Virus record (IMG/VR): IMGVR_UViG_3300047160_035177
Location: 209 to 64,208 of that record
Strand: one strand, 5' to 3'
Source of the DNA: a virus
Lineage: Duplodnaviria; Caudoviricetes
Length of the DNA: 64,000 nt
Under the pieces are notes generated by a model that saw only the letters and a program-made list of their open reading frames with translations, made no database searches and was not told the DNA's origin. Shown here one piece after another: positions 1 through 64,000 of this stretch. Numbering within the stretch: the first letter of the stretch is position 1; each line of letters opens with the position of its first letter. The position numbers and the translations under genes are program-made.

Positions 1-204
1 CTCATCGGGCGTGTAGGCATCTACACCACTTGAAAAAACGTGTGCGAAGCCGCGTTCACCACCATCGCCGTCAGTGCCGTGTATCGTGGTGGAATAATCG
101 ATCCTAAGAACGCGCCCGAGACAAACAAATGCCTCGGGCCAAACGACACCGTTGATCTCGGGGCAATCGAGTAGCTTGCCGGGGATTTCATCTATGAGGC
201 GCAC
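1..204 (-). CDS. 5' part of a putative virion protein running off position 1 (MRLIDEIPGK...LGRVLRIDY...GFAHVFSSGVDAYTPDE)
   Basis: Own translation: GTG at 204 overlapping the upstream stop, 68 open codons ending exactly at base 1. Confidence 0.7.
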   Translation of the reverse strand, partial: MRLIDEIPGKLLDCPEINGVVWPEAFVCLGRVLRIDYSTTIHGTDGDGGERGFAHVFSSGVDAYTPDE

Positions 205-13069: not shown

Positions 13070-13120
13070 GGGACCCTTCTTTCTTCCCTCACAGGGCCTT
13101 CTTATAAGACGATATACGGG

Positions 13121-13170
13121 GGGTGTGAAATAAGCTTAATTACTAGGGTGTGAAATAAGCTTAATTACTA
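13121..13170. repeat. Perfect 25-bp tandem duplication
   Basis: GGGTGTGAAATAAGCTTAATTACTA at 13121-13145 and 13146-13170. Confidence 0.95.
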
Positions 13171-13255
13171 CCCCCCAAAATCGACTTTATATATGACGAT
13201 CCATGGTGTGAAGAAAGAAGGGGCTTATTTCACAAAAACAACGAAAACGGATTTA

Positions 13256-13400
13256 TTTTCTACCCTAGAAATTGCTTCTTGCACCGAGTAAGAAGTGCAA
13301 GAAGGGTAATTTCTACCCTCCGAAATTAGCTTCTTTCACTAGCAAGAGGTGGTGAAAGAAGTGCAAGAAGGGTAATTTCTACCCTGCGAAATTAAATGCT
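13256..13400. repeat. Iteron-like 30-bp direct repeats with nested inverted repeats (putative origin)
   Basis: AAGAAGTGCAAGAAGGGTAATTTCTACCCT at 13290-13319 and 13356-13385; partial third copy near 13256; AT-rich non-coding gap. Confidence 0.85.
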
Positions 13401-13413
13401 TCTGTGAAAGAAG

Positions 13414-14661
13414 CTACTCGTCAACAAGCCAGTACCAACGACCCGTGCGTCCACCAGTCACGACGTCTTTCTCGCAAAGCTGCTCCGCGACTCTTATCGC
13501 GAGCAATGCTTCGTCGAGATTTCTTGCCGTTAAGTGTGTTTTCCTGACAAGCATACTTCGTGCCATACCAGCCTGACCGGCGTTCTTGAGGGCTGCCCGG
13601 ACACGATCCAATGGCGATGCGGTACGCTCGATCACCAAGCCGAAGTTGTCGACCAACGATCGCATGCAGTGCTCTACGAACAAAATCGCCGGCAGCATCG
13701 AGTCTGGCTGGACAACGAGATCGCCCACCGAGTCCGGTGTACGCAACGACGCTTCGTAGAGAGTAGCGACCCGTAGAACGTGCTCTTTAGCGCGGGCGAA
13801 ACTCGGTGCGATATGTGCGGAAGCGCTGCGTTGCAGATCTTGCCACGCTGGATCCTTGTCCCACTTCCGTACTAGCTCCCAAGCTTCGTCACTCAACATT
13901 CCGTAAGTAGGAAGTGTAAGCGGGCCAATCAAAAAATTCAGCTCGTCTTGGAGCTGGCGAACCAGACTAATGACGTCTTGGTCGGCTTCCATCTCCTTGT
14001 CGTCCGGGCGTTTAGCACAACATATCAAATACCTCGCCATCTTCCCGGCGTGCCAATCCAGCATCCCAACAGCGCTGTTAACCAGCTCGCGCGTGGACGC
14101 TCCTAAAATTGAAACGCGCGGGCGCTCGATACGCACTTGCTTGCCGCCCGCTTTGACACGGGACATCGTCTCTGGCGCGTCATAAAGCGTGTTCCACATC
14201 TCGCTTTGGTGTCCCCACCACTTCGCGGCCAAAAGACGATGCAGATCTGTCCACTCGTAGAGGATGATCAGTCGGTTAGCCTCTTTGGCTAGCTCGTCAA
14301 CGATTCCTTCGGGCGATGAAGTACTCGGAAAGAACAGACGCGCTCCACCGTTCGAGACGCGATCGAACACGGGAGAAGCCATCCGAAGAGCGCGCTTGAT
14401 CGAAGAAGTTTTCCGAGATGCGGACGAATCACCCACGATCAGTTGGTAGAGATGCAACGGGTGGATCACGTTTCTAAAAACGAGATCCATCTGCGGCGCT
14501 ACCGCAGTCGACGTCAACGCTAGCGCCGACATAATGTGGTACTCGGGCGGGGCATCGGTACCCTGCACTGCGTACCATACATAGTTGTAGATGAGGCCCC
14601 CCGGCGGAAGGAACTTCTCGTAATCAGAGAAATTCCAAACGGGTGCGACAACCGCCGTCAT
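13414..14661 (-). CDS. DUF3987/YfjI-like replication protein with C-terminal winged helix
   Basis: LYQLIVGDSSASRKT degenerate P-loop; SSPEGIVDEL; start reassigned to MTAVV. Confidence 0.7.
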   Translation of the reverse strand: MTAVVAPVWNFSDYEKFLPPGGLIYNYVWYAVQGTDAPPEYHIMSALALTSTAVAPQMDLVFRNVIHPLHLYQLIVGDSSASRKTSSIKRALRMASPVFDRVSNGGARLFFPSTSSPEGIVDELAKEANRLIILYEWTDLHRLLAAKWWGHQSEMWNTLYDAPETMSRVKAGGKQVRIERPRVSILGASTRELVNSAVGMLDWHAGKMARYLICCAKRPDDKEMEADQDVISLVRQLQDELNFLIGPLTLPTYGMLSDEAWELVRKWDKDPAWQDLQRSASAHIAPSFARAKEHVLRVATLYEASLRTPDSVGDLVVQPDSMLPAILFVEHCMRSLVDNFGLVIERTASPLDRVRAALKNAGQAGMARSMLVRKTHLTARNLDEALLAIRVAEQLCEKDVVTGGRTGRWYWLVDE

Positions 14662-14755
14662 GTATGTCTCTTTCGCGTGTCGTAGATCATCGGCGGCCGA
14701 TCGTTTACACCCACACGCTAAATGGGTCAAAAGAAAAAAGAATCTTCGAATTGCT

Positions 14756-14784
14756 TTGACAACCATTGATTGAGCACCTAGGTT
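14756..14784 (+). promoter_or_regulatory. Sigma70-type promoter of the replication operon
   Basis: TTGACA-N17-TAGGTT. Confidence 0.65.
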
Positions 14785-17795: not shown

Positions 17796-18605
17796 ATGCG
17801 CGAAATCAAAATCGTTCCGGGTGGAGCGCCCGCGAGAGTCCATGGGTTGGTAGCGGGACTATCAGGAAGCGGAAAGACGAGCTTTGCTGCTTCCGCACCC
17901 AAGCCCTTGTTCATCTCTGACGTCAACGAAGGCGGTTACAACACCCTCTTCGCGATGGATCCCGCGATCTGGTGGGATTCCAAGGTAGCGCCGGAAGTTC
18001 ATGCCATCGAGAAGTACACGGACATGTCCGAGGAGATCTCGAAGCTCGAGCAGATGGCCGCGAAGAAAACGTTTCCGTGGCAGACGCTCGTGATCGATCC
18101 CTTGTCCGTCTACGTCGATCGATTCCTGGGTGAATTGATGGCCCAGGATCTATACAAGGACAGCCGGAAGTACTACGGCGATCTTGCCTCCCACATCCAG
18201 GCGCTCGTCCGACGTGTGCATGCGCTTCCCTGCCACGTTCTATGGCTCTGCCACGTGAAGCACGATGGAAGCGAAGTGAACGGCCCTCACATCGGCGGTC
18301 AGATGGCTGAGAAGTTTCCCGCCTACTGCGATTTCAAGTGGCTTACCAACGTCGTAACTCAGCCTAACGCTCCACCAGTCTACGAGCTTCGAACGTTGCC
18401 TTACCGCACGTGGACTTTTCTAGGTGGCCGATGGCCCCTCTACGATCCGATGATTCCCAGCTTCAAGTGCATCTCGCAGCTTTTGGGCCTTGGCTCGCCG
18501 GTATCGCCTTCGGTTCCTGGATTCCCGAATGGCGTCACATACCCACCACGATCGGCTAATGCGCCAACGAATGGCGTTAATCAGCAACAAACAACAAACC
18601 CGTAG
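17796..18605 (+). CDS. AAA_24/Sak4-like recombination ATPase
   Basis: GLSGSGKTS Walker A; LVIDPLS Walker B; sits between nuclease and SSB genes. Confidence 0.8.
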   Translation: MREIKIVPGGAPARVHGLVAGLSGSGKTSFAASAPKPLFISDVNEGGYNTLFAMDPAIWWDSKVAPEVHAIEKYTDMSEEISKLEQMAAKKTFPWQTLVIDPLSVYVDRFLGELMAQDLYKDSRKYYGDLASHIQALVRRVHALPCHVLWLCHVKHDGSEVNGPHIGGQMAEKFPAYCDFKWLTNVVTQPNAPPVYELRTLPYRTWTFLGGRWPLYDPMIPSFKCISQLLGLGSPVSPSVPGFPNGVTYPPRSANAPTNGVNQQQTTNP

Positions 18606-19220: not shown

Positions 19221-19320
19221 CGCTCCTGGTGCTCGAGTAAAGCCTCGGTGGCTCGTGTTTACTTGAGCATTTCCTTCCCGTGTGGCCCCGAACGGGCGGA
19301 GCTTCGGGGCATTTAAAATC

Positions 19321-20823
19321 ATGATTCAACGCGATGAAAATGGGCAGGTAGTGCACAGCCGCGGACCTGGCGATTCTCCCAGTTGTGAGGGTTGCCCATG
19401 TTCCCGCGACGGCAAGCCTGGCAAGCCTGTGCGCGCATGGGGTGCCAAGGGCGGTCTAGCGATCGTCGCCGAAGGCCCCGGTAGTGAAGAGTTGATCCAG
19501 GGCTACCCACTCGTGGGTCCCACGGGTCGGCTGCTCAACGATGTTCTGCGTAAGGGAAAGATCGACCGACAACAGTGTTGGATCACCAACGCGCTTCTGT
19601 GCGCTCGTCCATCGATCGATCAGGACATGTTCCGAGCGATTGAACACTGCCGACCGCGGCTCGAAGCTGAGTTACAAACCGCGGCTCCTTCAGCGGTTCT
19701 CGCTCTTGGTGGAACGGCGGCTAAAAGCTTGAAGCTCCCGGTAACGGCGATTTCCGAAGCCCGGGGCACCGTCCAGTATTCTCCGTTCCTGCCTAACGTT
19801 CCCGTTATTACCTCACTACATCCTGCATCGCTCTTCAAAGGTGGCGCAGGTGAAGTAAAAGGCGGTGGGAAAAACAAGCAGAACGTCGACGCGCAAATGA
19901 TGTTTCTTCAGGCCGATGTCGAAAAGGCGGGAGGCGTTGCCTCCGGCGCAATTCCTGCTCAGTGGTCCGACGACATCAAGGTCATAACGTCCATCGAGGA
20001 AACCGCCGCCGAAGTTAAGGCAATCATCGAAGAAGCCCGTGCATGGTGCGCACTCGGTATCGATCTCGAGTGGAACAAAGATCGGATGATCACGTTTCTA
20101 GGCCTTGGCCACGGCGGCCGATCGATTTCGATTCCGTGGTTCCTCATGTCCGAAGAAGCGCTAAACGCTGCCGAAACGGCAATGGTCGATCCGACTCTGC
20201 CCAAGATCATCCACAATCTACAAGCGGACAAAGAGATTTGGGAACTATGCATAGGTCCCATGAATGGGAAGCTCATTGACACGATGTTGCTTCACCACGT
20301 TGGTTTTCCAGGACTCGCTCACGACTTGCAGCAGGTAGCTACTCAGTTTCTCGTCATCCCACCGTGGAAGACAGCTCACCGAGAAGAGCGGAAGAGCGTC
20401 GACAAGGCCTTGAAGCTCCGTGACCGCGAAGCAAAAAAGCTCGCCAAAAAGATGGATCGCATGAAAGCCCACGACGAACGTAACGCGCAGAAGAAGGCGG
20501 AAGCCGAAGAGCGCAAGGCTCAACGCGTAGCCGAACACGAAGCGCGCAACGCAGCCTCCGCGGCCGCAGGCCAAAAGCGCCGTGGCCGGCCGCCCAAGGT
20601 GCGTCCATCGCTAGACGCACCGCCGCCCACCCCCGTTGCCGTGGTGCCTCCAGAACCGCCTGCCGTTGCGCCCGCGGCTGAGATTCCCGTGGAGCCAACG
20701 CCAACGCCTCCTGTTCCTGACAGCCCCTTCGCAGCGCTGGCAGGAGCCCTCAAGAAGAAGCCCACCAAACGTCAACTCAACATCGTTGTTGTGGATGACG
20801 ACGGAAGCGAGCGGCCGGGATGA
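19321..20823 (+). CDS. polA: Split DNA polymerase A, N-terminal chain: family-4 uracil-DNA glycosylase-like domain plus 3'-5' exonuclease motifs I and II
   Basis: CEGCPC, AEGPGSEE, LVGPTG, TNALLC, HPASL; IDLEW (ExoI), HNLQAD (ExoII); charged and Pro-rich tail. Confidence 0.8.
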   Translation: MIQRDENGQVVHSRGPGDSPSCEGCPCSRDGKPGKPVRAWGAKGGLAIVAEGPGSEELIQGYPLVGPTGRLLNDVLRKGKIDRQQCWITNALLCARPSIDQDMFRAIEHCRPRLEAELQTAAPSAVLALGGTAAKSLKLPVTAISEARGTVQYSPFLPNVPVITSLHPASLFKGGAGEVKGGGKNKQNVDAQMMFLQADVEKAGGVASGAIPAQWSDDIKVITSIEETAAEVKAIIEEARAWCALGIDLEWNKDRMITFLGLGHGGRSISIPWFLMSEEALNAAETAMVDPTLPKIIHNLQADKEIWELCIGPMNGKLIDTMLLHHVGFPGLAHDLQQVATQFLVIPPWKTAHREERKSVDKALKLRDREAKKLAKKMDRMKAHDERNAQKKAEAEERKAQRVAEHEARNAASAAAGQKRRGRPPKVRPSLDAPPPTPVAVVPPEPPAVAPAAEIPVEPTPTPPVPDSPFAALAGALKKKPTKRQLNIVVVDDDGSERPG

Positions 20824-21635
20824 AAGCTCGGCCGTTTCTGAAGTGGGCGGGCGGCAAGAAACAGCTTCTACCTGAGTTGTTGAAGCGCGTTCAGATGAAG
20901 TCATATAGGACCTACTACGAACCGTTCTTAGGTGGTGGTGCTCTCTTCTTCGCGCTCGCGCCGAATCGAGCCGTGATCTGTGATGCGAATCTGCGTTTGA
21001 TTCAAACGTACAAAGCGGTGCGTGACTCGGTTGATCAAGTGATCGATATTCTTCGTTGGCATCAAGATCAGCATTCCGAAGAGCATTTCAAAGCAATGCG
21101 AAATATCGATGTAGATAACAAAGATAAGATCGCATGCGCCGGCTGGATGATTTATCTCAACAAGACCGGCTACAACGGTCTATATCGCGTCAACTCCAAG
21201 GGTCATTTCAATGTGCCCTTCGGCCGATACGCGAACCCCAAGATTCTGGATGAAGAGAACTTGCGTGCTTGCTCGGAGCTTCTCGGCCGCGCTGCGATTC
21301 GATGCCAAGATTTCCGAGAGAGCTTAGAGAATCCTATCGGCGGCGACTTCGTCTATCTAGATCCGCCCTACGTTCCCATCTCGGAAACATCTTCGTTCAC
21401 GTCGTACACCGCAGAAAAGTTCACCCACGAAGATCAGAAGGATCTAGCGGCCTACGCCGCGGAGCTGAAATCCCGCGGTGTCTCGGTGCTCCTCTCTAAC
21501 TCCTCGGCACCGTCCGTGACTGAAGATCTCTATCCATCCTTCAAGATCGAGAAAGTTAAAGGCCGTCGATCTATCAACTCCAAAGCCTCGAAACGCGGTC
21601 CCATCGATGAGTATCTGATCTCCACGGAGACGTAA
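20820..21635 (+). CDS. dam: DNA adenine methyltransferase (Dam/D12 class)
   Basis: FLKWAGGK, YYEPFLGGGALFF, VYLDPPY. Confidence 0.92.
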   Translation: MKARPFLKWAGGKKQLLPELLKRVQMKSYRTYYEPFLGGGALFFALAPNRAVICDANLRLIQTYKAVRDSVDQVIDILRWHQDQHSEEHFKAMRNIDVDNKDKIACAGWMIYLNKTGYNGLYRVNSKGHFNVPFGRYANPKILDEENLRACSELLGRAAIRCQDFRESLENPIGGDFVYLDPPYVPISETSSFTSYTAEKFTHEDQKDLAAYAAELKSRGVSVLLSNSSAPSVTEDLYPSFKIEKVKGRRSINSKASKRGPIDEYLISTET

Positions 21636-23206
21636 TGAAAATCTCGCCCGACATCATGAATGAAGGCGTTTACAACGCCCGCGACGTTCTCAGCACATGT
21701 CGTGTCTACCCGTTTCTTATCGATGCGGTCGAGCGCAGCGGCTGCACACAGGTCTACGAAGTTGACGAGCAGATGGCCCACCTTGCCCTGCAGATGACGC
21801 GCGTCGGTATGCCCGTATCTGCTTCGGAGCGGAAGCGGGCAGGCGATCACCTGCGAGAGCTTCGAGATCAAGCCGCCACCGATCTTGAAATAACGATGGA
21901 ATTGAATTGGGAAAGCTTCCTAACTTGGGTCGCCAAGCTTCAAGCCTCCAAGATTCGTAAGAACGAGCCCGCGTTGGGAACACCGCAGTTCGAAGGCGGT
22001 CCCGCACATTCGGAAGAAACGTCCTTCTACGCGCGGGTGGAAATTCGAAAAGAGCAGTTTCGAAAACTCATCGAGAAGCACGGTTGGGCGAAGAAGGGCT
22101 TGAACCTCGGCGCCAAGATTCAACAAGCCGCGTTGTTGCGCGCCTCGGGTGTTCCGCTCACGAAGACGACCCTGAAGAGCGCAATCCCCAAGGTCGACAA
22201 AGAAGTCCTCGAAGACATGCGGCAGTTTCCCGCGGCCAAGGCCTTCTTGCAGTGGTCTCTTACCTCCGCCGCGCTCCGCAACTTCGTGGACAATCTCGAT
22301 CTAGACGAAAACGGATTCATGCATCCGGAATGGGAGATCCACAAGATCTCCGGCCGCTGGGGTAGCAAACCGAACGTGCAGAACTGGAGCAAGCGCGCTG
22401 GGGGAGGCGTCGAGAATCTACGAAAGATGATCGTCGCCCCTGACGGTTACACCTTCGTTGGCGCTGATCAGAAGCAACTTGAAGCGCGGCTCATTGCTGC
22501 TGACTCCGGTGATCCATTCCTCAAAGGTGTCTTCGAACGCAACGAAGATATCCACTCTGCCATGGCCGGAGTTGCCTTCCCGACTGCATGGCCCAAGGCG
22601 GCCGAGACCTATATCGCTCACAAGAAAACGAAATGCGGGCCAAGTGATCTAGAGCCCAAGTGCGATATGTGCAAGCAACGGGACAAGATCCGCGATCTCA
22701 CCAAGCGCCTCGAATACGGCGGCTTCTACGGTGGTACCGATCAGACCCTGCACGAATCTTGCGTGAAAGATTTCCCCGAGCTTAAGCGGGGAGATGTCGT
22801 CAACTTCCTCGCCAACTTCAACAAGCAGATGCCTCGCGTTATGGCGTGGCGCGTAGATATCCTCGAGCAAGCCACCAAGGAAGGCGAGATCCGCTCGCCT
22901 ATACTAGGCCGTCGAGAATGCTTCCCGATGGGTCGTGTAGAGCCAACCGTGGCCTACAATTTCAGGCCGCAGTCCGGTGGCGCTGATCTCTGGGATCTCG
23001 GGGCGATCGAATTCTGTAAACGTTGGGATCAAAGAACGTGGGATGCCCGGATCTGCCACAACGGCCACGACTCAGTCCTGATCTTGTGCCGAGAAGACGT
23101 AGCGCCAAAGGTCGTCGAAGATGTCCACGCTTGTTGGGAACGAGATTGGAACGGCGTTCAGTTCCTCATGGATACTAAGGTAGGCAAAAGCTGGGCGGAC
23201 GTTTAA
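21635..23206 (+). CDS. polA: Split DNA polymerase A, C-terminal chain: ExoIII plus polymerase domain
   Basis: YNARD (ExoIII); ADQKQLEAR (motif A); KRLEYGGFYG (motif B); HDSV (motif C). Confidence 0.9.
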   Translation: MKISPDIMNEGVYNARDVLSTCRVYPFLIDAVERSGCTQVYEVDEQMAHLALQMTRVGMPVSASERKRAGDHLRELRDQAATDLEITMELNWESFLTWVAKLQASKIRKNEPALGTPQFEGGPAHSEETSFYARVEIRKEQFRKLIEKHGWAKKGLNLGAKIQQAALLRASGVPLTKTTLKSAIPKVDKEVLEDMRQFPAAKAFLQWSLTSAALRNFVDNLDLDENGFMHPEWEIHKISGRWGSKPNVQNWSKRAGGGVENLRKMIVAPDGYTFVGADQKQLEARLIAADSGDPFLKGVFERNEDIHSAMAGVAFPTAWPKAAETYIAHKKTKCGPSDLEPKCDMCKQRDKIRDLTKRLEYGGFYGGTDQTLHESCVKDFPELKRGDVVNFLANFNKQMPRVMAWRVDILEQATKEGEIRSPILGRRECFPMGRVEPTVAYNFRPQSGGADLWDLGAIEFCKRWDQRTWDARICHNGHDSVLILCREDVAPKVVEDVHACWERDWNGVQFLMDTKVGKSWADV

Positions 23207-36237: not shown

Positions 36238-36449
36238 ACGTCGTGGCGTGGATCTTGGGTCTGGCGCTTCTCGGCACGCTTATTGCTCTCGAGATTCGCG
36301 TCTCGCGCCGTCTACGCGCGAAGGAGCGCGCTATCCAGACTGAGATCGACAAGATCGCCGAAGTGATCGACGCGAGATTCCAGCGTCAGTATGGCCGCAA
36401 GAGCGCCACGCTCGCCCAGCATTTCCCGCGACTAGGAGCCGGGCAGTGA
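36234..36449 (+). CDS. Small N-anchored membrane protein
   Basis: N-terminal TM; coupled. Confidence 0.55.
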
Positions 36450-37528
36450 ATATCTGTTGCGCCCGTGGTGGCGTTGCTAGCGGCGGTGGATCCCAGGGCC
36501 CGCAAGGGCCACAGGGCCCGCCAGGATCTACAGGTCCACAGGGCTCGCAGGGAGCCCAAGGTCCGCAAGGCGCACAAGGCGCCGCTGGTGCGCAAGGTGC
36601 TCAGGGCTCGCAGGGGGCGCAGGGGGCTCAAGGCGCACAGGGCGCGGGTGTAACGCTCAACAACGCAGCGGACGGCCGCTTGACGTTGGTTACCGGTGTT
36701 CCCGTTCCTCAGACCGACCAAAGCGCAAAAACCGTCCTTTATTACACGCCGTACATCGGCGACAGCATTTCGCTGTGGAACGGCGCATCTTGGCAGACGG
36801 TTATTTTTACCGAGAAGAGCATCGACTTCACGGTTCTAGCCAACAATATTTCAGCAAACGTAAATTACGACATTTTCGGATTTCTTTCGGCGGGAACGCT
36901 TGCTCTCGATCCGCCCTTCGCTTGGGCAACAAGCGGCGCAGGAACCAGCACGCGGGTAGCAAACTTAACTCGCCAGGATGGACGACTCGTAAAAAACGGT
37001 GATGCGACGCGGTTGTACCTCGGCACTATTCGAGGTACAGGCGCGAATCAAACTTCCGATACAGCGGCCGGTCGCTACGTTTGGAACAGCTACAACCGCA
37101 CGACGCGGCCGATGTTGGAGCAGTCAGCGACCAATAGTTGGACGTACACAACGGCCACTTGGCGCCAAGCGAATGCAGACACGGCGAATCAAGTTGCGCA
37201 TGTAGTTGGCTTTGTAGATGACGACTTATATCTATCTCTAGGCGTAATCGCTTCCTGTGCCGTCGCAGACGCTGCTGTTTCCGTCGGTGTAGATTCGACG
37301 ACAACACCGAACGCCAACATGATCATATCTTACCAATCTGGTACGATCACAGCGGCAATCACAGCTTATCTTACCTATCAACCTACGATTGGTTACCATT
37401 TCTACGCGTGGTTGGAAATTTCCCCGACCGGTTCTGGCACAGTTACATGGTTTGGTTTCATCGGTACCAATCCAGTTACGGCAACGACATCCGGCCAATC
37501 TGGCATCTCGGGAACGTGGTCATGCTGA
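36446..37528 (+). CDS. Collagen-repeat fibre/spike protein
   Basis: MNICCARGG; (GxQ)n; [12 protein letters not shown]...YYTPYIG domain. Confidence 0.8.
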
Positions 37529-37547: not shown

Positions 37548-38522
37548 ATGTCTACGATCTGTTGTCAACGCGGACCACGTGGACCCGAAGGCCCCCAAGG
37601 TACCCAAGGCCCGCAGGGTTCGACGTCGTTTCTGAATGTTGTCGCCGACGGGCGCCTAACGGTTGCTTCGGGCCAGCCCGTTCCGAACAACCAAGATCTT
37701 CCTGCTCAAGGAACGCTCTTCTACACGCCCTATACTGGTGCATTCATCGCGTTGTGGGACGGCGCCCAATGGATCATCGTTCCTTTCACCGAACAGAGCA
37801 TCGTTTTCGCTGGCGGGAATGCGATCGTAGCCAACACTAACTACGACATCTTCGGCTTCCTATCCGCGGGAACCCTCGCGCTAGATCCGCCCTACGCTTG
37901 GGCTTCTAGCGGCGCAGGCACCAGCACCCGCGTCGCGCCTCTCTCACGTCAAGACGGTGTGCTGGTCAAGAACGCGGATCCAACGCGTCGCTATCTGGGA
38001 ACAATCCGCGCCAGCGCCAACAACCAAACATCTGACAGCTTGGTTCAACGGTTCGTCTGGAACAACTATAACCGGGTGACTCGACCGGTTTACATGTTCT
38101 ACAACGTGCACACATGGACATACAGCGCTCCGGGCTCGAATGTTTGGCGCGAAGCTGACGACTCAAACAACCCAAGTACTCCACGAATCATCGAGCAGGT
38201 TGTCGGTGTGGTCGACGATGCGGTTCACATCCAACTAGCCGTTCTGTCAGCTCTTAACAGCGGAGCCGACGCCGCTGTGGGTATAGGCATGGATTCGCTG
38301 ACCAGTCCCGATGCGCAATGCTCCAACACCTACAGCTCCATTCAGACCTTCGTAAATTTGTATGCATTTTTGGAACAACAACCCAGCATCGGATACCACT
38401 TCTACTCATGGTTGGAGCAATCGCCCGCGAACGCGAGCCCGACATTTCGCGGATTTGATGGCGCTAGCTCCTTCCCTGCATCTGATCAGCGCTCCGCTCT
38501 TAGCGGAATGGTGACGTCATGA
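37548..38522 (+). CDS. Fibre/spike paralog with short collagen segment
   Basis: MSTICCQRG; DGRLTVASGQPV...FYTPYTG; clear paralog of 36446..37528. Confidence 0.8.
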   Translation: MSTICCQRGPRGPEGPQGTQGPQGSTSFLNVVADGRLTVASGQPVPNNQDLPAQGTLFYTPYTGAFIALWDGAQWIIVPFTEQSIVFAGGNAIVANTNYDIFGFLSAGTLALDPPYAWASSGAGTSTRVAPLSRQDGVLVKNADPTRRYLGTIRASANNQTSDSLVQRFVWNNYNRVTRPVYMFYNVHTWTYSAPGSNVWREADDSNNPSTPRIIEQVVGVVDDAVHIQLAVLSALNSGADAAVGIGMDSLTSPDAQCSNTYSSIQTFVNLYAFLEQQPSIGYHFYSWLEQSPANASPTFRGFDGASSFPASDQRSALSGMVTS

Positions 38523-41654: not shown

Positions 41655-41842
41655 TAGATTTTCCATACGTTCGTTGGAAGGCCGAAGCACCCTTCGATGC
41701 GCCAAGTGCCGCGGTTGGTCTGAAGATGGATCTCGTACCCACCAGGTTCGCCCGCATAAATGCCTACCATAGTTTCGGGATCGTCGTTGATCTTGATGTC
41801 CAACACCTTATCCCCGATCGCTTCTTCGATTCGCTCGATCAT
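41654..41842 (-). CDS. Hypothetical protein
   Basis: Coupled to recombinase gene. Confidence 0.55.
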   Translation of the reverse strand: MIERIEEAIGDKVLDIKINDDPETMVGIYAGEPGGYEIHLQTNRGTWRIEGCFGLPTNVWKI

Positions 41843-42834
41843 GGGTTCTCCTTTTTCCGCAGCTTTTCGATTGCGGTGTCCATCACCTCAGCGCCTTCTC
41901 GAGCGTGCTCTGCCAGGTTGTCCACATAGCGCATCGTCATGGTCATGTTGGAGTGTCGAGCGAATGCGAAGGCCGAGGCAGCTCCTTTCTCCTTCACAAC
42001 CTGAGTAATCGCTCGGTGCCGGAAGCCGTGGGGCTTCGCGTTGGGAACCCCAGCGGCCGCGGCTGCGGTGCGAATCACTTTGTAGAGGCCCACCCCCGTG
42101 AGCCGCCCGCCTAGATAGTTGGTGAAAACGGGGCCTGTTGGGGGCCATCCATGCTTCGCTCGTACGGTGATCCAGGCGGCTAGAACCTCGGCCACCTTTG
42201 GGGTGATCGGCACCTTGTTGCGATCGATCTGCCCTTTTCCCAGGATGTTGACCGTTCGCTCCTTGAGATCTACATGCTCGATATCGAGGCCTAGAACTTC
42301 GCCCCGCCGTAGGCCATTGCCGAGCATCAAGTAGACCGCCGCTCGGTTCCGCACCGCGAGAAAGCCCCAGTTTCTGGTGCCCGCGGCGTCCTTGTCGAAG
42401 TGATCTAGAAGCGCCGCGATCACTTCATCCGGCGGACCCTTGGTATCCCGGCTTTTTTGAATTCGAGGCAGCGGCACCGCGAGGCGCCACGAGATCAGGC
42501 CCAGGGTGTTGCCTACCGAGACCACAGCTGCGAGGCCTCCGTAGATTCGGCGCCTGATCGTCGCCGTTGCCTTTCCTTCCGCCTCGAGGTGATTTGCGTA
42601 GGCGAGTAGCAACCGATTCGCCTTCGCCTGGCTTTGAAGCAAGAGCTTAACTGCGGTGCGCTGATCCACCGCCCCGATCCATTCACGGAAAAGCTCTAGA
42701 TCTTGCTCGTACTCCGCAAGGGTGCTTTTCTTCCGCCGCGCCCGCCAGAATTCTAGGATCTGATCCTCGGGAGGAAGATCCTCGTCGGTTATCCGCTTAA
42801 CGAGCGCGGTGGTTTCGGGTTTTTGGACGGGCAT
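41839..42834 (-). CDS. Tyrosine recombinase (integrase/Xer-like)
   Basis: GLRRGE (R), GKG (K), HGFRH (HxxR), ARHSN (H), MRY (Y). Confidence 0.9.
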   Translation of the reverse strand: MPVQKPETTALVKRITDEDLPPEDQILEFWRARRKKSTLAEYEQDLELFREWIGAVDQRTAVKLLLQSQAKANRLLLAYANHLEAEGKATATIRRRIYGGLAAVVSVGNTLGLISWRLAVPLPRIQKSRDTKGPPDEVIAALLDHFDKDAAGTRNWGFLAVRNRAAVYLMLGNGLRRGEVLGLDIEHVDLKERTVNILGKGQIDRNKVPITPKVAEVLAAWITVRAKHGWPPTGPVFTNYLGGRLTGVGLYKVIRTAAAAAGVPNAKPHGFRHRAITQVVKEKGAASAFAFARHSNMTMTMRYVDNLAEHAREGAEVMDTAIEKLRKKENP

Positions 42835-47503: not shown

Positions 47504-48463
47504 TTAGCCGTTGGAGAAGAGGCGCACCCAACGCGCTCCGCCGGCCTCCGTCGTGTTGCAGTAAATGAACGCGTTGACACCCGTTGCGAAGCTAATCGTG
47601 GCGCCGGTGTTGGTCATAATGCAGTTAACGGCGCTGCTATTACCGGTATCGTTGTTGGTCACAGACCAAGTGTTCGTATTGGCGCCGGTGTAGATGATAA
47701 CGATCGATCCCTCTTTCGCAGGGGCGACCATACCGGTAAGCGTGAAACCGGCGCTCGGACCGGTAATGAACCAGAACGAAGATCCACGGAGATCAACGTT
47801 GTTGTTGTTGCCGTTCGAAAGCGTGATCGATTTCGCGGGACCTAGACACAGGTTGCCGAGAATCCGGGTGAACGTATCTGCGACGTTCTGACCGAGATCG
47901 ACATCGATCGCATTGGCGCCGATAAGCACGTTACCGTTCGCGGTCGCGACGTTGCCCGTGCCAGCATCAAGAGTAAGATTCCCGCCGGTAGTTCCCGAAG
48001 ATGCGCCTGCTTTGAGGCTGATTGAGCTGCCGGCTCCAGCTACGGAAGGAGGCGCCAACGCGCCTGATCCGTTCGTCTGAATGATGTCGCCGCTAAGCGT
48101 TGTCGCGCCGCTGAAGTAGGCTATCTGCGTTGCCGTGCCCGAGATTGTTCCCGCACCTTGGGGACCTTGTGAACCCTGTGAACCCTGCGAACCCTGCGAA
48201 CCTTGAGCACCCGTCGCACCTTGTGAACCCTGCGAACCTTGAGCACCGGTGGCGCCCTGAGCACCCGTTGCGCCTTGAGCTCCAGTCGAGCCCTGGGGTC
48301 CTTGAGAACCCGTTGCGCCCTGTGGGCCCTGAGCTCCAGTCGAGCCCTGCGGACCAGCGGAACCTTGAGCGCCGGATGCGCCTTGGGGCCCTTGGGGCCC
48401 TTGGGGGCCTTGAGGACCCTGCGCTCCTCCGCTTTGGTATCCGCCTCGAGCGCAGCAAATCAT
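47504..48463 (-). CDS. Long collagen-repeat fibre protein
   Basis: MICCARGG; about 30 Gly-X-Y triplets; Gly/Asn-rich C-terminal domain. Confidence 0.85.
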   Translation of the reverse strand: MICCARGGYQSGGAQGPQGPQGPQGPQGASGAQGSAGPQGSTGAQGPQGATGSQGPQGSTGAQGATGAQGATGAQGSQGSQGATGAQGSQGSQGSQGSQGPQGAGTISGTATQIAYFSGATTLSGDIIQTNGSGALAPPSVAGAGSSISLKAGASSGTTGGNLTLDAGTGNVATANGNVLIGANAIDVDLGQNVADTFTRILGNLCLGPAKSITLSNGNNNNVDLRGSSFWFITGPSAGFTLTGMVAPAKEGSIVIIYTGANTNTWSVTNNDTGNSSAVNCIMTNTGATISFATGVNAFIYCNTTEAGGARWVRLFSNG

Positions 48464-49231: not shown

Positions 49232-49441
49232 TTAAGGCTGCGGGTGCGGACCGGTGGTGTAAAGCTGGTGCGATCCGCAAGTGTCGCAGGCCTCGGGCGC
49301 CGGGGCGTTCCAGCGGTGGTCACAGAGCGTACACGTGTAGCCGAGAAGCGTTCGAGGCTTACGTAGAGTGACGCCAACGAGAACGCCAGCGACGAAGCCA
49401 GCAACGAAACCGGTGCTCAGAAGAGCCACTAAGTCCATCAT
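49232..49441 (-). CDS. Membrane-anchored Zn-ribbon protein
   Basis: N-terminal TM; CTLC...CDTC. Confidence 0.6.
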   Translation of the reverse strand: MMDLVALLSTGFVAGFVAGVLVGVTLRKPRTLLGYTCTLCDHRWNAPAPEACDTCGSHQLYTTGPHPQP

Positions 49442-50382
49442 TCCGCCTCCACTGCTTCGGCCTCGGCCTGTTTCTGGGCTTTCACTCGGGCTCGCTCCGC
49501 TCGATGTAGAAGAGGAAGGAATCCAGGGATCGCCTCTCCTACTCGACCTTCCGAGATATCTCCAGTAATCCATGAAAGTAGGGCGATCTCCCGTTTGCTG
49601 AAGATGGTTCGATCGTCATTCTCGCGATCGATGTCTACGAGCTTTCGAAGCTGCTTCTTCCCGGGAAGGGGTTTAGCGCCGGCTTTGCCGCCAGCTTTTT
49701 CAACGGCTTTGCGCACACTAACTCCGTTGTTGCCGTGCGCGCCAAGCTCCGTCAGCACTTCGATCTGCTTCTCGCGAGGCAGCGTCCCGAGCTTGCTGAC
49801 AGCGTTGCTCGCTGAGATCTGGCCTTGCTCGACCGCTGCTTGAACTTTGGGGTGCAGATCGAGCAGCTCCACCCAGGCGCGGATCGTCACGGTGGAAACG
49901 CCGAAGATCTCCGCGACGTCGCTGTCACTACGGCCGCGTTGAAGGAGAATGTTGGCCTTCTTCGCGCGGGCGAGCGGGGTGTCATCTTCCCGTTGCTCGT
50001 TCAGCACGATCGCAGTTTCGAACGCAGCGCCGTCATCTCCGCGCCACAGCAAGATGGGGATCGAAACAGGAGATGCGCCTTCGGCTCGTAGGCGACGGTT
50101 CGCTTCACGAGCGCCTCGAACGCGCTGACGTCCGTCGACTACTTCCGGTTGCTCACCATTTTTGCGAACGATCACGGGCTCGAGAACACCGCGGGCCATG
50201 ATCGAGCGGACGAACGGCTCACTCAGGGGTTTCTCGATGCGCGGGTCGTAGAGCGCGTGATCCTTGTCTTCGATGATCAGCAGGTTGTCGGGATCCAGGT
50301 AGAAAACGGTGCCGCGGTGGCCATCGAAGGCTGTCTTGGTCTTCTTGTCTTTGCTCTTCTCTAGGTCCTTTTTCTTGGTCAT
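49438..50382 (-). CDS. ParB-like protein
   Basis: GVLEPVIVR...VVDGRQRVR; HTH DVAEIFGVS; GGAGG RBS. Confidence 0.85.
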   Translation of the reverse strand: MTKKKDLEKSKDKKTKTAFDGHRGTVFYLDPDNLLIIEDKDHALYDPRIEKPLSEPFVRSIMARGVLEPVIVRKNGEQPEVVDGRQRVRGAREANRRLRAEGASPVSIPILLWRGDDGAAFETAIVLNEQREDDTPLARAKKANILLQRGRSDSDVAEIFGVSTVTIRAWVELLDLHPKVQAAVEQGQISASNAVSKLGTLPREKQIEVLTELGAHGNNGVSVRKAVEKAGGKAGAKPLPGKKQLRKLVDIDRENDDRTIFSKREIALLSWITGDISEGRVGEAIPGFLPLLHRAERARVKAQKQAEAEAVEAE

Positions 50383-50514
50383 GGGCGATACCTCCGGGGT
50401 TGCGATCTGTATAACGAGTTGGACAACCGCCGCAAGAAATTTTGTTTTACCGGTCAAGGCTAGCGACGACTGTTGCCGGATACGTACTCGCCCGTTAAAC
50501 TCGCTAGACAGTCG

Positions 50515-50808
50515 ATGCCAGGAAAAAAACCGTCTTTCAGGCAAGTGTCCTTCAAGGAGTCGTTCAAGGGATTTCGGATCGCCAAGTCCCGCGGCTCTGT
50601 TCTTCTCGAACGAGCCGTGAAGAAATTCGGGTCGCTCGCCTTAGCGACCAAAGACTTGAACGAGAAGACCGTGCACGGTCCCCACGCCAGACGCTACCTG
50701 CGCGCGTCCGTGTGGCACTGGGCAACGGGTCAACACAAGCCCGGACGGAAGGCGGCCGCGGCCCTAGAAAAGTGGGCCAACATCTCTATTCGTGCGTGGG
50801 ACGAATGA
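50515..50808 (+). CDS. Cro/XRE-like HTH protein
   Basis: SVWHWATGQHKPG...AAALEK. Confidence 0.55.
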   Translation: MPGKKPSFRQVSFKESFKGFRIAKSRGSVLLERAVKKFGSLALATKDLNEKTVHGPHARRYLRASVWHWATGQHKPGRKAAAALEKWANISIRAWDE

Positions 50809-62183: not shown

Positions 62184-63740
62184 TTACCCGATGCCGACCG
62201 AATCCAGCGTGCCTTGGAGCTGCTGAGCGCGCTGAATGAGCAGGCTCGCCACGAACGGGTCGTTAGCGGCAGCGCCTGCCTTCTTGAGGGCCATGTCACC
62301 AGCGACGCCGCGAGCCCCAGCGGCAGCCGGCGCCACCGCGGTTCCCGAAGCGGTCACGCCCGGAGCCGGCATGGTGCCCGGGAAGTAAGGCGACGGAAGT
62401 GGGCATGGGCTGGTGCTGGTCGGCCATGCACACCCGTACTGGCAAGTGCCAAGACCGGCTCCGTGCCCACAAGTGCCTCCAAGGCCTGCGGTGCCAGTCG
62501 GCGCCAACGCACCCGGAGCGGGTGGCGTGACGGCCGGAGGCAACGCAGAGCCCGGGAAGTACGGCGAGGGCAACGGACACGGCGAAGTGCTGGTCGGCCA
62601 AGCGCAGCCGTATTGGCAGGTACCAAGCCCTGCGCCATGGTCGCAGAGTCCGCCGAGCCCGGCCATGGGCGATCCGTAGATCGCGTTGCCGAGAACGCCA
62701 CCCTTACCGGGGCCGAGCCCGACCATCGGCAGCACGATGCCGAGAACGTCTTCGACAAAGTGCAGCGCCGCACCGAGAGCGATCAGCTCCCGATTCGAGC
62801 GCCAAGCCGAAGGCGTCCAGTTCTGTCCGCCAGCCCACCACAGAGCGCCCGTGGTGATCGCCGAGACGACCGGAGGAGCCCACTTCGAGGCGCTGATCGA
62901 CGGAGCGGCCTTGGCAAGCTGGGTAGTACCCCAGCTCGACAGAGCGCGTGCGCCGATGAGACCAATGGAGGCGATTGCTGCCTTCTTGGTCAGATCGACG
63001 AAACGACCCGTCGGGTTGGCGCTCCGCATCTCATACGACCGTCGGTGCCGTCGCCGGCGCTCTGAAGGCATGTACGAGGAGTACGGACGGCCAAGAGCCG
63101 TAAACTCGCGGCTCCGCCGATGACGCCGCCTGCGGCGCTCGCCTACAGCCTCACGGGACCGTCGCCGCGACCGGCGCCGCCGACGCTCGCCCATGAAGAA
63201 CGGGAGAAACTCGCGCGACCGACGCCGCGCCCGTCGACGCGACCGTCGCCGCCTCCGGCGCTCACCGAGCCCGAAGAAACTCGCCAGAGTTTCCCGGCTT
63301 CGCCGCCTTCGGCGCCGCTCGCCCGTTCGCCGAGACCGACGCCTTCGGCGCCGCTCACCAGCGCGCATCGTCTCGCGCGACCGGCGCCGACGTCGACGCT
63401 CGGAAGCAACAACTTCACGCGACCGCCGACGCCGCTTGCGCGACCGCCTCCGGCGACGCTCCGAAAGATCACCTGCGACGGCTTCTCGCGACCGGCGCCG
63501 ACGACGCCGACGGCGCTCTGCTAGCGCCTGAAATGCTGCCATGGCCATGCGATTCTCCTTTGGTCGATAACGACGACGTTCACCGAGGGTTATCGGTCCA
63601 TCTGGCGGATAAACCAGCGTGGCCGTTGTGACGCCTCCTATCACCGCGTCTGCGGGTAGCGCGTCACGATAACGCCGTCTGCGTTTACGCACGTTGATCA
63701 CGTTACGTGGATGGGGGAAAGCGTCAAGAGAAAATTTCAA
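62184..63740 (-). CDS. Protamine-like Arg-repeat core protein fused to hydrophobic and Cys-repeat regions
   Basis: About 10 xERRRRR(R)SR blocks; hydrophobic helices; duplicated GLGTCQYGCAWPTSTSPCPLPSPYFPG. Start uncertain: TTG 63740, GTG 63692, or ATG 63548 with AAGGAG RBS. Confidence 0.8.
   Translation of the reverse strand: MKFSLDAFPHPRNVINVRKRRRRYRDALPADAVIGGVTTATLVYPPDGPITLGERRRYRPKENRMAMAAFQALAERRRRRRRRSREAVAGDLSERRRRRSRKRRRRSREVVASERRRRRRSRETMRAGERRRRRRSRRTGERRRRRRSRETLASFFGLGERRRRRRSRRRARRRSREFLPFFMGERRRRRSRRRSREAVGERRRRRHRRSREFTALGRPYSSYMPSERRRRHRRSYEMRSANPTGRFVDLTKKAAIASIGLIGARALSSWGTTQLAKAAPSISASKWAPPVVSAITTGALWWAGGQNWTPSAWRSNRELIALGAALHFVEDVLGIVLPMVGLGPGKGGVLGNAIYGSPMAGLGGLCDHGAGLGTCQYGCAWPTSTSPCPLPSPYFPGSALPPAVTPPAPGALAPTGTAGLGGTCGHGAGLGTCQYGCAWPTSTSPCPLPSPYFPGTMPAPGVTASGTAVAPAAAGARGVAGDMALKKAGAAANDPFVASLLIQRAQQLQGTLDSVGIG
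62381..62665 (-). repeat. Duplicated Cys/Pro-rich coding repeat of about 37 aa
   Basis: Two nearly identical peptides encoded with many synonymous DNA differences. Confidence 0.85.
63028..63521 (-). repeat. Poly-Arg coding repeat array
   Basis: Repeated (G/S/A)ERRRRRRSRE units. Confidence 0.9.
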
Positions 63741-63811: not shown

Positions 63812-64000
63812 TCATCCCGTGATCATTCCCGTGGAATCCAAGCCCAGAAATCCGCCTTGGATCACTGCAACGGGATGGCCGTCCATCGAAACAGCGAGGA
63901 GTTTTTTGCCTTCGGGATCCCACGCCAAGAGACACGGATCGATGGCGCAGATCTCGTCTACGTCTTCGGAGATCGCGTCATCGACATCTTTCCGTTCGTA
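63812..64000 (-). CDS. 3' part of a protein entering from the right edge (YERKDVDD...LAWDPEGKKL...QGGFLGLDSTGMITG*)
   Basis: Own translation: 62 codons plus TGA, first codon starts exactly at 64000. Confidence 0.7.
   Translation of the reverse strand, partial: YERKDVDDAISEDVDEICAIDPCLLAWDPEGKKLLAVSMDGHPVAVIQGGFLGLDSTGMITG

Follow-up and report, generated by a model that had tools for sequence, protein, structure and literature searches.

The stretch of DNA analysed here, which we refer to as the window, is 64,000 nucleotides long and is open at both ends, i.e., a reading frame runs off each of them. This raises the question of whether the two frames are parts of one gene, such that the genome closes into a circle at this point. 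A preliminary description of the window had proposed that they are, and had gone on to suggest a circular genome of about 64 kb, a protein of 130 amino acids formed by joining the window ends directly, and a structural operon that continues across the join. Its coordinates and reading frames proved accurate: on the minus strand, one ORF runs from position 204 to base 1, where it ends on a full codon (...VDAYTPDE), and base 64000 is the first base of a complete codon in another frame (YERKDVDD...), which extends to 63812 (positions are those of the window, unless assigned to the contig).

We examined the window ends within the record from which the window was taken. This record, classed as a virus, consists of one contig (64,208 bp, GC content 57.8%), of which the window comprises positions 209-64208, omitting the first 208 bases. 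Contig bases 1-97 were found to equal contig bases 64112-64208 base for base, a direct terminal repeat of 97 bp with 100% identity, and the terminal redundancy that the preliminary description had proposed looking for is hence present in exact form. The end copy falls within the window (63904-64000), the start copy lies outside it, upstream of window base 1, and a unique stretch of 111 bases, or 37 codons, separates the two window ends (contig 98-208). Without one of the two repeat copies, the sequence closes into a circular map of 64,111 bp, which leads from window base 64000 through contig 98-208 to window base 1. A contig continuing with unrelated sequence had been named beforehand as the outcome that would speak against closure; instead, the extra 208 bp consist of the missing middle of the ORF and a copy of the last 97 bp of the window. 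GC skew ran on unbroken through the junction, its cumulative curve having extremes near 8 kb and 44 kb of the contig, and the contig contained neither an inverted terminal repeat nor any N. No other viral record was matched by a pattern requiring the closed junction.

CheckV takes a genome as closed when the two contig ends share a repeat of 20 bp or more (PMC8116208). Such terminal repeats often result from the assembly of a circular genome, or of a linear genome replicated through a concatemer; an assembler breaks a circle at a random place and leaves an overlap of k-mer length, the commonest lengths being 55, 77 and 99 (PMC8116208). Three classes of false positives are recognized, namely repeats of low complexity, repeats with further copies inside the contig, and concatenated genome copies (PMC8116208), concatenation being scored when a duplicated region makes up 20% of the contig or more. 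The 97-bp repeat is of high complexity, with an entropy of 1.98 bits per base and 16 of 16 dinucleotides present, and each of its k-mers is present at the two contig termini only. A search of the contig for internal copies yielded none (the best internal match was 23 nt at 87%), and self-BLAST detected no concatenated genome copies, the longest other repeat in the contig being 96 nt at 76%. Given this complexity, the lack of an internal copy and the lack of any other duplication longer than 96 nt, all three false-positive classes are excluded. The record agreed with the CheckV criteria for direct terminal repeats throughout, i.e., in repeat length and identity, complexity and uniqueness, absence of concatenation, viral content, and gene continuity across the closure.

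On the closed unit, the minus-strand frame passes through the 111 bp without a stop, giving a gene of 68 + 37 + 62 = 167 codons. Its first 68 codons occupy window positions 1-204, with a GTG start at 204-202, and its last 62 codons and stop occupy positions 63812-64000, the stop being at 63812-63814. An in-frame TAA directly precedes the GTG, which fixes the N-terminus of the protein. The repeat encodes codons 106-138 of this gene, and the ORF is intact only on the circle. The frames of the two window ends agree because both lie in one gene and because the omitted 111 bp amount to 3 x 37 nt. There is no direct join between the window ends, the real protein has 167 amino acids, and the 130-amino-acid version is an internal deletion artefact of where the window was cut.

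Could such an agreement in frame arise by chance, or through a chimeric misassembly bringing together ends from different genes? Two random ends will be in frame in one case out of three, and high-GC DNA is rich in long spurious ORFs; a plus-strand ORF of 145 amino acids (contig 63915-64111 + 1-241), for example, also crosses the junction, antisense to the 167-codon gene, and is most likely a shadow ORF of the GC-rich coding DNA. Nevertheless, an exact, unique, high-complexity match of 97 nt is beyond chance, and the explanation is further refuted by homologs from independent samples that contain both halves of the protein together with its middle (see below). We therefore consider it hardly credible.

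Using a word-based search, we found a homolog of the 167-amino-acid protein in a JGI metagenome (P0001, 170 amino acids), which aligned with it from end to end at 56% identity (E = 5e-58) with 5 gap positions. This alignment includes the 37 residues encoded outside the window; aligning P0001 with the direct 130-amino-acid join, in contrast, required 42 gap positions. The product of the last 62 codons was 55% identical to P0001 residues 109-170, and the N-terminus matched those of P0001 and P0002, which start with V/MRLVDEI. A profile search of 1.84 billion representatives uncovered 13 further homologs of 157-238 amino acids, each covering profile positions ~3-170 in one stretch. At 50% identity, the family thus numbers 14 representatives out of 1.84 billion proteins, all 14 of them metagenomic; ten that were looked up were singletons from metagenome or Logan assemblies, and two members, P0005 and P0013, are encoded on contigs of 22.8 kb and 99.6 kb, respectively. 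Conserved motifs extend over the full length of the 14-member alignment, including the segment outside the window, and the members share a GMI-G end at the C-terminus. One member, P0012, carries an N-terminal DUF5661. Four long profile matches (P0015, P0017, P0018 and P0019) were rejected as homologs, being Calx-beta, LVIVD and HYR repeat proteins that matched by composition.

In all 14 family members, which come from independent samples, the two halves and the middle are contiguous. Since the homologs are full-length and collinear, the halves at the window ends and the omitted middle form one protein, and the circular closure is thereby validated independently of the DNA overlap. The proposal of a circular genome of about 64 kb with one gene across the junction is thus borne out twice, by the exact 97-bp overlap and by the full-length homologs. 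Regarding the joined protein, the homologs uphold the contiguity of its halves and contradict its length, given that the 130-amino-acid join needs a gap of ~40 residues. Searches of the viral_contigs, metagenome_contigs and phages collections for related loci found none, either with the spanning protein, P0001 or profile A1, or via the flanking 358-amino-acid protein, the 406-amino-acid protein and the DNA polymerase.

An AlphaFold2 model of P0001, built on the family alignment, showed one compact all-beta domain (pLDDT 92, pTM 0.87), in which strands 86-100 and 103-110 fall in the segment outside the window. As the model is a single compact domain with strands 86-110 in the omitted part, neither half can be a protein alone. 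The 167-amino-acid protein is acidic (18 kDa, pI 4.1), has 6 Cys, and lacks a hydrophobic segment. No family match was obtained in Pfam, PHROGs, NCBIfam or PADLOC, nor any sequence match in the PDB; Foldseek against the PDB and BFVD gave TM values of 0.2 or less, i.e., no fold neighbour. Similarly, a Foldseek-independent fold search (VIA-align) reached a best Z of 2.9, and the ESM Atlas returned sub-threshold rows only, scoring 0.83. The Leu-Gly pair at residues 29-30 might have marked a cleavable leader (LG propeptide), but we rejected this idea, since in the folded domain these residues are part of strand 25-38.

Taken together, these results lead us to conclude, with a probability of roughly 0.92, that the record represents the whole genome of a virus, 64,111 bp long on a circular map, which the assembler opened at an arbitrary site within a gene, leaving 97 bp of overlap, and that the window omits the start copy of this overlap (97 bases) as well as the adjoining 111 bases. 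The record resembles the contigs with direct terminal repeats described for CheckV (PMC8116208) in its exact terminal repeat of at least 20 bp, the odd, k-mer-like length of that repeat, its uniqueness, the viral content and the arbitrary intragenic cut; it differs in that 97 bp is not among the most frequent overlaps (55, 77 and 99), and otherwise in nothing essential. A k-mer origin of the 97 bp is accordingly plausible, though unproven. The overlap would be a by-product of assembling a circular or circularly permuted template, and not a physical end. The DNA in the particle may be either a covalently closed circle or a circularly permuted linear molecule.

A repeat of this kind could alternatively belong to a linear genome with fixed ends, as in T7-like phages, that carries a genuine 97-bp direct terminal repeat, with circularity limited to a transient or concatemeric stage. 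Direct terminal repeats of ~100 bp are within the range of real phage terminal repeats, which counts in favour of this explanation. So does the absence of 97 from the k-mer lengths given in PMC8116208. However, the repeat corresponds to the middle of a conserved single-domain ORF, and fixed ends at this place would leave a truncated copy of the gene at each end of the virion DNA. To our knowledge, fixed direct terminal repeats lie in non-coding ends; this is the T7-type arrangement, and here the repeat was found in coding sequence. Moreover, neither a terminase nor a portal was detected in ORFs of at least 200 amino acids, nor any Walker A motif of the packaging type. Fixed ends are, in our judgement, very unlikely.

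The 97 bp could also be the core of an attachment site, in which case the contig would be an integrated provirus trimmed at attL/attR. A tyrosine recombinase/integrase is indeed encoded on the minus strand at 41839-42834 (PF00589, E = 1.4e-21; phrog_1, E = 2e-32). Yet the contig is free of host DNA, the integrase gene lies ~21 kb from the junction and does not adjoin it, and the repeat codes for the middle of a viral protein whose parts are contiguous in 14 of 14 family members. A search of 185,579 prokaryote species genomes gave no exact match to a 30-nt core of the repeat, a weak argument given that the host may not be represented there. We hold this explanation to be even less likely than fixed ends. 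Tyrosine recombinases act on circular DNA forms, and a ParB-like protein, of a kind typical of circular episomes and phage-plasmids, is encoded at 49438-50544 on the minus strand (phrog_1033, E = 6.8e-32; HTH_ParB, ParB_N). The pair fits a circular stage.

We further characterized the genes on either side of the junction, all of which lie on the minus strand. Upstream of the spanning gene is a gene for a 125-amino-acid protein with 9 Cys and no family match (192-569, minus, stop at 192-194), which shares 13 nt with the beginning of the spanning gene; this overlap suggests that the two genes are translationally coupled. Downstream, beginning 71 nt past the stop of the spanning gene, is a gene for an Arg-rich protein of 518 amino acids (62184-63740, minus), with a pI of 12.0, one hydrophobic segment and, again, no family match. 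Along this protein, repeated Arg runs are followed by the hydrophobic segment and then by a duplicated Cys/Trp/Pro-rich unit, the DNA copies of which (62376-62453 and 62550-62627) are 78% identical. Overall, the genes around the junction encode Cys-rich proteins, mostly with a C-terminal hydrophobic anchor, in addition to the pI-12 Arg-rich protein. No terminator or promoter motif was found at the junction. Strand, spacing and the lack of such motifs support the continuity of the operon postulated across the join; the label "structural" could not be upheld, as the flanking genes match no family. With low confidence, the gene for the 167-amino-acid protein would share a transcript with those for the Cys-rich, membrane-anchored and Arg-rich proteins beside it.

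The remainder of the replicon is of viral type and includes a phage-type replisome, with PHROG matches to a DNA polymerase, primase, helicase, Sak4, the ParB-like protein, the integrase and collagen-like fibre proteins. The DNA polymerase, of family A, is split between two ORFs, one bearing a UDG domain and a 3'-5' exonuclease (19282-20823) and the other the polymerase domain (21635-23206); an ORF of 271 amino acids (20820-21635) lies between them. The Sak4-like ATPase (17796-18605) contains the sole canonical Walker A motif in a plausible ATPase. Also encoded are an SNF2 helicase, a PD-(D/E)XK nuclease, a sigma factor and glycosyltransferases, along with three collagen-repeat, fibre-like proteins (36446-37528, 37548-38522 and 47504-48463), whose matches to many PHROG tail-fibre families are confined to the Gly-X-Y repeats. 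A common segment of 89 nt, at 83% identity, occurs at 36863-36951 and 37839-37927. No tRNAs were found. A primase/helicase with DUF3987 is encoded at 13414-14766 (minus), and just downstream of it, the intergenic region 13070-13413 harbours two sets of direct repeats, i.e., a 25-nt unit in tandem (13120-13190) and a ~46-nt unit at 13290 and 13356 (91% identical, 66-nt spacing), as well as a 33-nt imperfect inverted repeat. Judging by this layout, the region is a candidate iteron-type replication origin.

Searching ORFs of at least 200 amino acids against Pfam and PHROGs, we recognized no terminase, portal, HK97 capsid protein or jelly-roll capsid protein, and no packaging ATPase was found. On these grounds the replicon could, though improbably, be a plasmid-like episome instead of a virus, a possibility opposed by its PHROG-matching, viral gene content.

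Two types of known phages bear comparison with a complete viral genome of this kind. Phages of the P22/P1 type, which package by the headful mechanism and whose DNA is circularly permuted and terminally redundant, assemble into a circle whose break point may lie inside a gene. The arbitrary, possibly intragenic break point is shared with the present record; these phages differ in encoding a large terminase and a portal, neither of which is detectable here. Tailless phages with an internal membrane, such as PM2 (Corticoviridae) and Salisaeta phage SSIP-1, have circular dsDNA genomes. They are similar to the present genome in their circular map, in the lack of a recognizable terminase, portal or HK97 capsid protein, and in a late block rich in small membrane-anchored proteins. 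They differ in that neither a double or single jelly-roll capsid protein nor a packaging ATPase of the FtsK/A32 type was identified here. The phage collection held no sequence relatives of this genome.

Overlapping ends are commonplace among viral contigs assembled as circles, and standard pipelines already make use of them. What the closure adds is a corrected gene model, in which the junction gene encodes 167 amino acids and not 130, where annotation of the linear record would split or truncate the gene; together with the demonstration of completeness, this is useful bookkeeping and not a discovery. With a complete genome, a truncated contig cannot explain why a terminase, a portal and a capsid hallmark are absent, and the genes for the particle and its packaging must be unrecognizable rather than missing. 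As for the spanning protein, its gene position and charge hint, with low confidence, at a late-expressed, soluble accessory or assembly factor that possibly works with the basic, Arg-rich neighbour. A broader and decidedly tentative idea, which we regard as doubtful, is that this rare-family protein may be a lineage-specific morphogenesis factor, e.g., an acidic partner of the pI-12 Arg-rich protein, in a tailless virus that has a truly circular genome of 64 kb and no recognizable packaging enzyme.
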